Assembly: GCA_000004695.1 (NCBI GenBank)
Contig: CM000152.2
Span: 3,712,001-3,776,000, forward strand
DNA length: 64,000 nt
Direction: 5' to 3'
Source of the DNA: Dictyostelium discoideum
Taxonomy: Eukaryota
Shown here: positions 59,010 through 62,818 of the stretch, in pieces
Layout of the letters: every line of letters starts with the position of its first letter
How positions within the stretch are numbered: position 1 is the first letter of the stretch
The notes under the pieces: generated by a model
Told to the model about the DNA's origin: nothing
Databases searched by the model: none
What the model saw: only the letters and a program-made list of their open reading frames with translations
Translations under genes and position numbers: made by a program

Positions 59010-62000
59010 TTAATTCGAATTATTATCATTAAAAGTGAATCTATTTAAAGATGCAACCAATGGTGATTGATCCACATTATCGTTATTATAATAATTTTGA
59101 TTGTTATTATTATTATTGTTAATTTCTTGGTTATTGATTGGATAAGTATTTGATAATTGAGGAGTTGTAAATGAAATTGATTCAGCTCTAAATTTACTAG
59201 AGTTTACACTACTTGATAAACTATAACTTAAACTTTCTTCATCATTAATAACGGAATGATTATGAATACTACCACTATTTATTACATTTGGAGAGGTATC
59301 CAATGATGGATCAATTGTAAAATTTTGTTGAGAGACAGATTTTGTTGCACTAACAATCTTTTCGAAAATATTATAACCAAGGTCAGTGACTGATTTAGAA
59401 GTTTTCTCTTGAATCTTTAAGAATTGATCTCTATAATCTCTAGCAGAGTCAAAAAAGGAGATTGCAAATGAAGTGATTGGATTCTTTAGCATACCTCTTA
59501 GATAATCGGTTGCTTCTTTCTTTGGTACACCTGGTAAGAACCTACCGCCAATGATGTCTTCAATGTAGGCTTCATCGATTAAACCAGCTACTTTTGGATC
59601 TAAACGAGTTAGAAAAGTAATTTGATAAAGGAAGAAAGAGTGATGTTTTCTTAATTGAAGGAATAGTCTAATACAAAGGTTATAGAAATCTTCTTTCTTC
59701 TTTTCATTATCCAAGAATTGATCTTCAAATGCTGTATCGTTTCTAATCACTGATGAAAAGAATTTTGGATCCATACCAAGGATGAAACCATAATCAATGT
59801 GAAAGATTTTCATCTCTTCTGTAAACATTACATTTTGATTATGTCTATCACCAACACCCAACAAATGAGTGATAATATTCCAAGTTGCCAATGATCTTGA
59901 AAAGTTTTTGGATGCTTGATCATAGGTGAGTGTTTGGCTACTACCCAAGAATGAAGTTATTCTGTTATATTCGACGAGTACATCCTTTAAGGTTTTTGAT
60001 TTCTTTACTGGTTCAATGAATCCATAGTTTACACCAGTTGGTAAAACACGATAAACTATTGGTTGCATGAATGGTTCCTTATGTTTTTTCTTTCCACTAC
60101 TTTCTTTTAATTTACGAAGTTCATTACATTGAATGATCAATTCATTCATTAAATAAATTAGATTTAGAATGATTTGATCTTTTCTAAGATCATCATGTTT
60201 GAAGATTAAACCAAAATCTTTTTCTTTACCTGTTCTATCATTGACACAATGACAAACTAAATAGAGTGGTTTGGTTGCAGATTTGAAAACAATCGATTCT
60301 TTAACCTTAAAATATTTAATAGTGTATGCTGGATTTGTTGGTAACTTTAAGAGTGAGCCTTGAGTCTCACAAAGATTAGTTAACTTTGTCTCTAGATACT
60401 CTCTATTTGGTAAAAACTCTATACCTTCTCTTATTGGACGATGTTGTTGTAAAATATGTGATAATTCGAAACCAAGTTGATAACTTTGCATTTGTTGTGG
60501 TGCTTCTCTTGTCATATAATTTGTAAATTCTAATTTCAATGCTTCATATCTTAAATCATATTCACCACCTTGACAATTCTTTAATTCCCAAATAAAATTA
60601 TATGCAATTGTTTGATCATTCTTTGACGATTCAAATAAAAAATCTGCTAAATCTGATTTAACATTTGGTTCATATCTAAATTAATAAAATAAATAAAAAA
60701 AAATTAATTAAAAATTAAGAATTTAAAAAAAAAAAAAAAAAAATCTACAATAATAATAATAATAATAATAATAATAATATTAAAATTTAATTACCTTAAT
60801 AAAAATGTTAATTGTGGTAAAACATATAATAATTTATCACCTAAACCTTTTAATTTGTTTGTTGCATAAGTTCTAATGAATGGATGAGTTATATTTCTAT
60901 CTAATAATGGTATAATATTTAATGGTGAAATTGTACATTGACAAGAACTTGAACACATTAAGTAATAACAATCCTTCTTATCACCAATATCCTCTTGAAG
61001 ACAATGTTGTAAACTTTTCAATTGTTTAGTGGTGATTCTATTATAATCAATTGAACATAATAACTTCATTAACCAAAGTGAATGACATCTAAGGTCTTCT
61101 CTATTTCTCCAAAGTACCAACTTTTCAAATGGTTGTAATCTATGAGTTGGAAATTTATATTGAATCATTCTAATTTGTGATAGATAAATGATGGTGGCTC
61201 TTCTCCATTGTGGATAAATCGAAGCGAATCTTCTTAGTGGACCAAATCTTAAGCCCAATAACTTCAAAAGGGAAACATCATTGAAATGACGTTGTGACCA
61301 ATCCAATTTATCATAACATGTTTTACAAACCCTACAGGTTTTATTTGAATACCATTTATATAGATAATCCTTTACACCATAATAGATTTGACCTGTTGAT
61401 AAATAATCTTGCTCAACAAAATATGATGCACATGTTGAACAAAACATCATACCACATTCTCTACAATGATGTCTATGATTATAATATAGTTTATCATTAC
61501 AACGATAACAATTTTGTGATGATGGTAAGGATAAATTTAATTTTCTTGGATCTAATAATTGGACGATATCAGGTGGGAATTTATCTTCATTGGCATCATT
61601 ATTACCAACACCACCAACACCGCCAACACCACCAACACCACCAACACCACCAACACCACCACCTATACTATTATTAATGCCATTATTCACTAAACCTTCT
61701 AATTTATGTGGTGTTACAAATCTATCAACCATTGAATTATACATGAAATTTGTATTGACTTTATTGAATGAACTAAATTCTGAGAATGCATTTTCCCTTT
61801 GAATTTGATTCTTTTCAGATAAAGAAAACTCTTCACCTGGTTCTCCAAAATAATTCAATGCCTCTGATACACTTTTTAATGATTCTAATTTTCTTTCTAA
61901 ATTCTTTCTAAATGCTTTCAACAAATAGCCATCAATAACATTGAAATAGTTTGCAATTGCTACCAATCTAGATAATTCAACACCACGACCTTTCAATGAT

Positions 62001-62818
62001 AGATATTGTTCAGCTCCCATCATTAATTTACATCTATTCATTTTTGATAATTTAAAACTTTTATACCATCCAAATGTTAAACTTGAATATATTATCTCTA
62101 ATGCTGGTATATTTTGTTTATTAACTCTTTGTTGTTGATTATTTTGTGATGTTGGTGAATTTTGTTGTTGTTGTTGTTGTTCCTGTTGTTGTTGTTGTTG
62201 TTGTTGTTGTTGTTGTTGTTGTTGTTGTTGTTGTTGTTGTTGTTGTTGTTGTTGTTGTTGTTGTTGTTGTTGTTGTTGTTGTTGTTGTTGTTGTTGTTCG
62301 TGCTCTTGTTGTTCTTGTTGCTGTTCTTGTTGCTGTTCTTGTTGTTGTTGTTGTGGCTGTTGTTGTTGTTGCTGTTGTTGTTGTTGTTGCTGCTGTTGTT
62401 GTTGTTGTTGTTGTTGTTGTTGTTGTTGTTGTTGTTGTTGTTGTTGTTGTTGTTGTTGCTGTAGTAGTTGTTGTTGTAGTTGTTGTTCTTGTTCTTGTTG
62501 TTGTTGAATTTGTTCGTTACAACATGAATGTAAACTATCAAAGAATTTAATAACCAAATCTATATCTTCATGTGTCACATGTATTTCTTTTGGTGGTTTA
62601 ATGACAAGGTATCTTGCATTTTTATTTATTTTTAAATGTGCTTCAATTTCATTTTGGAATAATAAACAATATTTAATAAAAGCAGTTGGTATTGGTTTTG
62701 TTTCTGCAAGTAATTGTATATAAAGTTTAAATCCAGCTGGTAAACTATTGATTAGATTATCCCCATTATTACTGTTACCATTATTACTATTAATATTATT
62801 ATTTCTATTATTTAACAT
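59010..62818 (-). CDS. FYVE zinc-finger-containing phosphatidylinositol 3-kinase (class III/Vps34-like catalytic domain). Exon 1 is 62818..60795, the intron is 60794..60676, and exon 2 is 60675..59010.
   Basis: The FYVE signature is 'CYRCNDKLYYNHRHHCRECGMMFCSTCAS...RVCKTCYDKL' (RHHCRxCG). A PIK helical/accessory segment '...LLYVLPQLTFLLR|YEPNVKSDLADFLFESSKNDQTIAYNFIWELK' spans the GTAATT...ttAG intron in phase 2. The kinase domain carries 'KDFGLIFKHDDLRKDQIILNLIYLMNELI', the catalytic loop 'LLGVGDRHNQNVMF' and the activation loop 'IFHIDYGFILGMDPK', closely paralleling Vps34 '[21 protein letters not shown]', 'GVGDRHLDNLL' and 'HIDFGYILGRDPK'. There is also a (GGV)7 tract and a Gln tract of about 100 residues, (CAA)n at 62160-62480. 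Confidence 0.8.

Follow-up and report, generated by a model that had tools for sequence, protein, structure and literature searches.

Three systems provide the closest points of reference for the gene described here. Vps34 (PIK3C3), the class III phosphoinositide 3-kinase (PI3K), possesses a C2 domain that serves as a hub for Vps15 and Beclin-type partners; PIKfyve carries a catalytic domain of the phosphatidylinositol phosphate kinase (PIPK) type and uses phosphatidylinositol 3-phosphate (PI3P) as a substrate; and Skp1 is the adaptor of Skp1–cullin–F-box (SCF) complexes and in yeast is also found in the non-SCF Rcy1 and RAVE endosomal complexes. The gene lies on the minus strand, at 59010..62818, of a 64,000-nucleotide stretch of the Dictyostelium discoideum genome (assembly GCA_000004695.1, contig CM000152.2, positions 3,712,001 to 3,776,000; hereafter the window, in whose coordinates all positions are given) and encodes a protein in which a FYVE zinc finger stands directly N-terminal to a PIK helical accessory domain and a PI3K catalytic domain, as it does across the family of the Mimivirus protein L615. 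We are highly confident that the D. discoideum protein belongs to this class-III-like FYVE family.

The domain combination has a published history. Mimivirus L615 (Q5UR69, FYVE plus PI3_PI4_kinase) was reported to find its best matches in the dictyostelid proteins D3BQ22, Q54UU9, and EGC34678, all of which show the order FYVE-PI3Ka-PI3_PI4_kinase (Rappoport and Linial 2012, Fig. 6E, PMC3271019); D3BQ22 and EGC34678 are orthologs recovered in our own search, and Q54UU9 is very probably the present D. discoideum gene. FYVE with PI3_PI4_kinase appeared as a rare combination in a 2010 survey (PMC2837644), and an in-silico paper of 2015 treated L615 as a Vps34 homolog (PMC4569851). As the architecture was already recorded in 2012 (PMC3271019), it is known rather than new. 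The original prediction for this locus, made from the DNA letters alone, had called it unusual, which holds for animals and fungi, where it is rare, but not for dictyostelids, in which it is conserved, or for giant viruses, in which it is abundant. Our literature search for a gene name or functional study brought no functional study to light. Atypical Dictyostelium PI3Ks are the subject of a 2026 preprint, which treats PikA-C and PikE-H and not the present gene (10.64898/2026.05.11.724005); the same preprint places the catalytic lysines of PikF, PikG, and PikH at 1119, 1415, and 1586 compared to K834 here, and we therefore rejected an identity with any of these three. An identity with PikI was likewise rejected, as PikI is a PIP5 kinase. 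On balance we favor, with some reserve, the reading that the gene is the dictyostelid member of the L615-type class-III-like PI 3-kinase family and encodes a PI3P-producing, self-targeting enzyme.

The kinase assignment is carried by domain models, intact catalytic residues, structural-database comparisons, and a tree. The three Pfam models that the original prediction had proposed for checking all score above their gathering cut-offs: FYVE (PF01363; E 1.1e-11, 45.0 bits vs. a cut-off of 27.8), PI3Ka (PF00613; E 4.6e-14, 52.7 bits), and PI3_PI4_kinase (PF00454; E 1.3e-21, 78 bits). The two kinase loops that it had quoted are indeed present, the catalytic loop as GVGDRHNQNVM (D951, H953, N956) and the activation loop as HIDYGFILGMDPK (D969). 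K834, D951, H953, N956, and D969 are all intact, and the alignment columns that hold K834, D951, N956, and D969 show little or no variation among 151 family members, 35 Vps34 sequences, and 8 outgroup sequences. The activation loop fits the Vps34 type, HIDFGYILGRDPKP, and the alignment to human and fly Vps34 continues through it. When the kinase domain alone was compared with the PDB by phmmer, fly and human Vps34 scored 85-86 bits (best 85.9), yeast Vps34 78, p110gamma 74, and PI3KC2alpha 69.6, and no PI4-kinase (PI4K) was found among the best 60 matches; a profile of 150 family members compared with the PDB gave 352-360 bits for Vps34, 301 for p110gamma, 284 for p110alpha, and 283 for C2alpha.

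A neighbor-joining (NJ) tree built from 358 columns of the distal helical and kinase domains (194 sequences, 200 bootstraps) recovered the FYVE-PI3K family with 95.5% support, canonical Vps34 with 99%, and the two together with 99%; the joint clade excludes the class I sequence, two C2-bearing PI3Ks, and PI4Kalpha. The PI4Kalpha sequences, mostly from plants and obtained by a word-index search with the 150-sequence family alignment, fell as an outgroup with 100% support. After addition of 66 viral open reading frames (ORFs), the family was recovered with 95% and the family plus Vps34 with 98%. We regard the sister relation between the family and Vps34 as well supported by these alignments, not as definitive. 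By the same comparisons the D. discoideum kinase is class-III-like and lies outside the Vps34 clade: the predicted closeness to class III/Vps34 stands in the phmmer, profile, and NJ results, and the tree amends it by placing the protein in a sister family. A PI4K reading was rejected because the PDB matches, the family profile, and the NJ tree all place the family with Vps34; a class I reading was rejected because the D. discoideum protein falls outside the class I sequence in the tree and shows no PF00794, PF00792, or PF02192; and a PIKfyve reading was rejected because the catalytic domain is of the PI3K/PI4K type in Pfam. The absence of these three models means that Pfam detects no Ras-binding, C2, or adaptor-binding domain in the D. 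discoideum protein, in line with the predicted lack of a C2 or Ras-binding domain, and no PI3K_C2 or C2 match was found in it or in six relatives scanned at full length.

Within the helical domain, H579, C617, C622, and C626 (...CHSLW...CYYLMCSSSC) are conserved in 145-148 of the 151 family representatives, and at the Cys positions of this cluster human Vps34 and the eight outgroup sequences (class I, PI4K, and others) show a gap. The His/Cys3 cluster may be a family-specific extra (third) zinc site, a candidate suggested by this conservation pattern.

The zinc finger upstream is a FYVE finger and not a RING or PHD finger, as the original prediction had it. Apart from the Pfam FYVE match at 45 bits, a PDB comparison of the finger alone gave FYVE domains as its nine best matches (endofin, Hrs, EEA1, WDFY3, Vps27, and RUFY1), and no RING, PHD, C2, RBD, or PX model matched the D. 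discoideum protein at E<=1; the RING/PHD reading was rejected on these grounds. The motifs RHHCRECG and RVCKTCYDKL are found in the protein, and the eight zinc-ligand cysteines form four CxxC pairs (C437/C440, C452/C455, C460/C463, and C498/C501) that are invariant with Dictyostelium purpureum and kept in 140-145 of the 151 family members. The description of the finger as canonical survives for the eight cysteines, the HHCR core, and RVC, but not for WxxD and the first basic residue, which are lost, nor for the spacing, since a long insert precedes RVC. Elsewhere in the family, WxxD was found in 67 of the 96 members scanned, and the short viral members have fully canonical fingers, the Trp of WxxD included; in the other dictyostelids the Asp alone is left of WxxD, with RR/RK present as well in Synstelium, Cavenderia, and Heterostelium. 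Judged by these motifs, D. discoideum and D. purpureum have a degenerate FYVE finger.

The N-terminus had been described as a region with a very long polyglutamine (polyQ) tract. The tract is real (102 Q in the 119 residues from 104 to 222) and has no counterpart in D. purpureum; what was missed is that the residues upstream of the FYVE finger are, by profile comparison and a predicted model, a Skp1-like domain split by the polyQ. The closest relatives outside the dictyostelids, P0011 and P0012, pass the Pfam Skp1 model PF01466 directly upstream of FYVE (28.0 and 24.3 bits; cut-off 22.3). A profile of dictyostelid N-termini only (A4) gave Skp1 as all of its best 26 PDB matches (E 4.5e-5 to 7e-3) and aligned to the part of Skp1 known for F-box protein binding; in its alignment with yeast Skp1, the gap at the polyQ site is spanned by yeast Skp1's own Ser/Asp/Asn-rich stretch. 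The dictyostelid N-termini are joined with the P0011/P0012 group by hhalign at 96% probability, POZ-type part included. In profile and predicted fold the domain has the Skp1 layout, a POZ fold followed by C-terminal helices matching the F-box-binding part, and a Foldseek search with the predicted model of an ortholog N-terminus returned nothing significant.

According to the same profile evidence, the Skp1-like domain precedes FYVE in one subfamily that includes all dictyostelids. The Skp1-like/FYVE/PI3K order is also present on two viral contigs of 240-260 kb (L023 and L073). P0011 itself comes from a virus-like metagenome scaffold (L081/L082), of which L081 has 23% G+C and dense intronless genes; its neighbor genes gave no matches to other loci, and the scaffold is accordingly called only "virus-like". 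About 3 kb downstream of P0011, at 8473-8907 of L081, lies a small ORF with faint F-box matches, a weak observation that is suggestive given the Skp1-like domain.

The distribution of the family was obtained from an exhaustive profile search of 1.84 billion representatives, which returned 235 family representatives at a cut-off of E<=1e-30, with family profile matches at E 1e-40 to 1e-187. The best matches are dictyostelid orthologs (Tieghemostelium, Synstelium, Cavenderia, Heterostelium, and Polysphondylium violaceum, the last with two copies), with which two further sequences cluster; orthologs are present in at least six dictyostelid species besides D. discoideum, and transcripts of other Amoebozoa (Soliformovum, Rhizamoeba, and Thecamoeba) are next best. 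More than 100 members of ~700 residues begin with a canonical FYVE finger (WxxD...RKHHCRxCGRIFC...RVC), followed by the helical and kinase domains (LGIGDRHLDNIMI, HIDYGFILGxDPKP). A scan of IMG/VR identified 116 viral contigs with full-length relatives, mostly giant-virus metagenome-assembled genomes and including one genome of 1,259,197 bp. Because 134 of the 151 family representatives are <50% identical to the IMG/VR loci by tblastn, they could not be labeled viral or cellular in that way. The ten dictyostelid-clade sequences form a clade with 100% bootstrap support, and the position of this clade inside the family has 1-13% support, so that we state no direction for gene transfer between amoebae and viruses. 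The two copies of P. violaceum are P0010 and P0152; P0010 (1027 residues) has no HHCR, DRH, or HID motifs and may represent either a paralog in decay or an error in the gene model.

We propose that the enzyme, judging from its similarity to Vps34, would phosphorylate phosphatidylinositol to PI3P, with the FYVE finger substituting for the C2 domain of Vps34, and would target itself to endosomal, phagosomal, or macropinosomal membranes and work there. As it has no C2 domain, it probably does not assemble into Vps15/Beclin(Atg6)/Atg14-UVRAG complexes. In canonical family members, binding of PI3P by the FYVE finger would retain the kinase on membranes bearing its product and amplify that product locally; the positive feedback put forward in the original prediction is a reasonable hypothesis. 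In D. discoideum and D. purpureum, given the degenerate finger, targeting may lean more on binding of an F-box-type partner by the Skp1-like domain. We lean toward this PI3P-producing, self-targeting mechanism, if only by a little, and the most likely role that the domain composition suggests is that of a C2-less, Vps15/Beclin-independent PI3P-producing kinase on endocytic membranes.

Several features weigh against this reading. The lipid product of the whole family is assigned by similarity; the D. discoideum activation loop departs from the family consensus beyond DPK and has lost the GG motif; and ~130 residues follow the C-terminal helix that is terminal in Vps34. The tree is distance-based; class I is represented in it by a single confirmed sequence, class II is absent, and Vps34 is represented by fragments from animals, fungi, and other sources. 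Neither the D. discoideum nor the D. purpureum N-terminus was matched by the Pfam Skp1 or Skp1_POZ model at E<=10, and the Skp1-like call in D. discoideum rests on profiles and on a model of an ortholog. In the D. discoideum finger WxxD is missing, with LSLPSSQN preceding the first Cys, and the basic motif reads HRHHCR (NRHHCR in D. purpureum) vs. R(R/K)HHCR, while RVC is kept; the loss of WxxD and of the first basic residue makes PI3P binding by the D. discoideum finger uncertain. These changes, at motifs that canonical family members keep, together with a 31-residue insert ahead of RVC, could instead point to an active kinase whose finger serves as a structural zinc module or binds a ligand other than PI3P; the conserved Skp1-like domain would then offer an alternative targeting route, with that domain or its partners setting localization and no product feedback. 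However, all eight finger cysteines, the HHCR core, and the Arg of RVC are retained, the FYVE model scores well above its cut-off, and a hydrophobic LYY occupies the position corresponding to the membrane-insertion loop of FYVE domains; we take this alternative seriously and consider it unlikely.

A different lipid specificity is improbable in our judgment. The enzyme might act in a class-II-like manner on PI4P to give PI(3,4)P2, which would make up for the absence of class II PI3Ks reported for Dictyostelium, or might be a 4-kinase; the divergence of the activation loop after DPK would be compatible with either, and the source of PI(3,4)P2 in Dictyostelium is unexplained according to the 2026 preprint (10.64898/2026.05.11.724005). 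However, the HIDYGFILGxDPK loop is Vps34-like, and profile and tree group the family with Vps34 and not with class I, class II, or PI4K. That the gene is a recently endogenized giant-virus gene without host function, or a decaying copy, is largely refuted and now seems very improbable: the diversity of the family in giant-virus contigs far exceeds that in cells, and amoebal genomes are known, in general, to take up giant-virus insertions, but the orthologs in at least six other dictyostelid species form a fully supported clade, D. purpureum has the intron at the same position and one neighboring gene in common with D. discoideum, neither the reading frame nor the catalytic residues are disrupted, and the base composition matches that of the host. 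Hardly credible at all is a pseudokinase, or a protein kinase serving as a scaffold. Such a reading could draw on the long-branched sequence with its low-complexity inserts and on the P. violaceum copy P0010, which has no catalytic motifs; in D. discoideum, however, K834, DRH, N956, and the Asp of DYG are all retained.

The gene model underlying these comparisons is sound. The prediction of a single two-exon gene is confirmed by the ORFs, by the splice junction read from the sequence, and by the position and phase of the intron in D. purpureum. Exon 1 (62818..60795; 2024 nt) opens with an ATG at 62818, and exon 2 (60675..59010; 1666 nt) ends in a TAA stop at 59012..59010; the 119-nt intron between them (60794..60676) is of the GT..AG type and phase 2, and consists entirely of A+T except for the splice-site bases and one internal G. 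The spliced coding sequence of 3690 nt specifies a protein of 1229 residues. The window is 77% A+T, and the gene structure is of the Dictyostelium type. The D. purpureum ortholog (P0001, XP_003288815; 1158 residues) has 57% identity to the D. discoideum protein over the full length and 65% in the section that runs from the finger through the kinase, and its intron interrupts the identical codon in the same phase (FLLR|YEPN). The Gly/Val linker, with its six GGV repeats, is missing from this ortholog, and the C-terminal tail is weakly conserved with it. The features of the gene are collected in the table.

Table. Features of the FYVE-PI3K gene in window coordinates, with predicted domains and residue ranges.
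Feature	Position	Strand	Basis or remark
Whole gene	59010..62818	-	ORFs, splice junction, translation; D. purpureum intron position/phase
Predicted Skp1-like domain, N-terminal POZ-type part, residues 27-100	62519..62740	-	
PolyQ/E tract, residues 104-222	62153..62509	-	Inserted between the Skp1-like halves
Predicted Skp1-like domain, C-terminal helical part, residues 250-346, ...LVAIANYFNVIDGYLL...ALNYFGEPGEEFSLSEKNQIQRENAFS	61781..62071	-	Profile vs. PDB; relatives' Pfam matches
Gly/Val repeat linker, residues 384-405, GGV x6	61604..61669	-	Species-specific low-complexity spacer
FYVE zinc finger, residues 433-505	61304..61522	-	Pfam PF01363, PDB FYVE matches, family motif comparison
PIK helical accessory domain, residues 550-733	60501..61171	-	Pfam PF00613; Vps34 helical alignment; split by intron 60676..60794
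His/Cys3 cluster within helical domain, H579/C617/C622/C626	60941..61084	-	Family conservation
PI3K catalytic domain and C-terminal helix, residues 780-1098 (Pfam core 830-1024)	59406..60362	-	Pfam PF00454, PDB phmmer
Asn/Ser-rich low-complexity C-terminal tail, residues 1110-1229	59013..59372	-	Past the end point of Vps34

A Pyr_redox_2 gene lies upstream of the kinase gene in both D. discoideum and D. purpureum, and this shared neighbor indicates that gene order is conserved. In the window it is represented by a partial minus-strand ORF (63563..63970, within 63563-64000) for a pyridine-nucleotide disulphide oxidoreductase with a thioredoxin-reductase-like C-terminus. Long ORFs in other frames or on the opposite strand at 61590-61802 and 62098-62550 (PTPP, polyN, polyV, and polyL) are spurious, being artefacts of the (GGV)n and polyQ coding repeats and not genes. 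On the plus strand, an ORF of 1161 residues at 55239-58724, acidic, rich in low complexity, and without a Pfam match, converges on the 3' end of the kinase gene. Farther away, the minus strand of 28763-42570 holds a tandem array of four paralogous ORFs (936-983 residues, mutual identity 74-89%), whose sole Pfam signal is a sub-threshold SAP_new25 near the N-terminus; a Kelch-repeat protein with a C-terminal RING finger, a two-thioredoxin-domain protein, and an RRP12-like HEAT-repeat protein are encoded at 4045-6006, 12009-14993, and 48317-51133, respectively.

Dictyostelium is a main model for PI3K signaling, phagocytosis, and macropinocytosis, and recent gene lists (PikA-C and PikE-H) omit the present kinase. 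If our proposal is true, a C2-less Vps34 relative working without Vps15/Beclin complexes would supply PI3P from a second source under its own control, and in pikE or multi-PI3K mutants residual PI3P and related phenotypes would have to be interpreted with this kinase in mind. The Skp1-like domain and the His/Cys3 cluster offer concrete hypotheses for mutagenesis. Since the same module occurs in hundreds of giant-virus lineages, a cellular ortholog that is amenable to genetics provides a direct way to learn what the viral kinases do to host membranes. More speculatively, and with considerable doubt, we suggest that the Skp1-like/FYVE/Vps34-like kinases could form a self-contained, Vps15/Beclin-independent PI3P module exchanged between giant viruses and amoebae, in which local PI3P production would be connected directly, through a Skp1-type adaptor, with an F-box partner or with SCF-like ubiquitin machinery, and the FYVE finger would give product feedback; the Dictyostelium protein would then be an overlooked eighth PI3K acting on phagosomes or macropinosomes, and the viral copies might build or protect viral-factory membranes. 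We regard the locus as of moderate interest: through it, a Dictyostelium PI3K that has been overlooked is tied to a very widespread gene of giant viruses, and the novelty of its architecture is low.

Compared with known systems, the D. discoideum protein most resembles Mimivirus L615 and its giant-virus relatives, with which it shares a family by profile and tree, a FYVE finger immediately preceding the helical and kinase domains, the His/Cys3 cluster, and the motifs LG(I/V)GDRH..N(I/V)M and HIDYGFILGxDPK. The identity of the viral L615-type proteins to the D. discoideum protein is 21-34%, and most of them differ from it in being ~700 residues long, with a canonical WxxD/RKHHCR finger and neither polyQ nor a C-terminal tail; most also lack the Skp1-like domain, the exceptions found in IMG/VR being the contigs L023 and L073.

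In its helical and kinase domains the protein comes closest, among solved structures, to Vps34/PIK3C3, whose type of activation loop and C-terminal helix it also has; in the tree the two groups are sisters. Unlike Vps34, the protein has no C2 domain, a FYVE finger preceded by the Skp1-like domain standing in its place, and has a Cys cluster added in the helical domain; Dictyostelium possesses a separate canonical Vps34, PikE (10.64898/2026.05.11.724005). Like PIKfyve/Fab1, it fuses a FYVE finger to a phosphoinositide kinase; unlike PIKfyve, its catalytic domain is of the PI3K/PI4K type, and PI3P would be its product. Finally, the N-terminal domain is like Skp1 in profile and predicted fold, the helices of the F-box-binding part included, and unlike Skp1 in being fused to a lipid kinase, split by polyQ, and, in D. 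discoideum, too divergent for Pfam.

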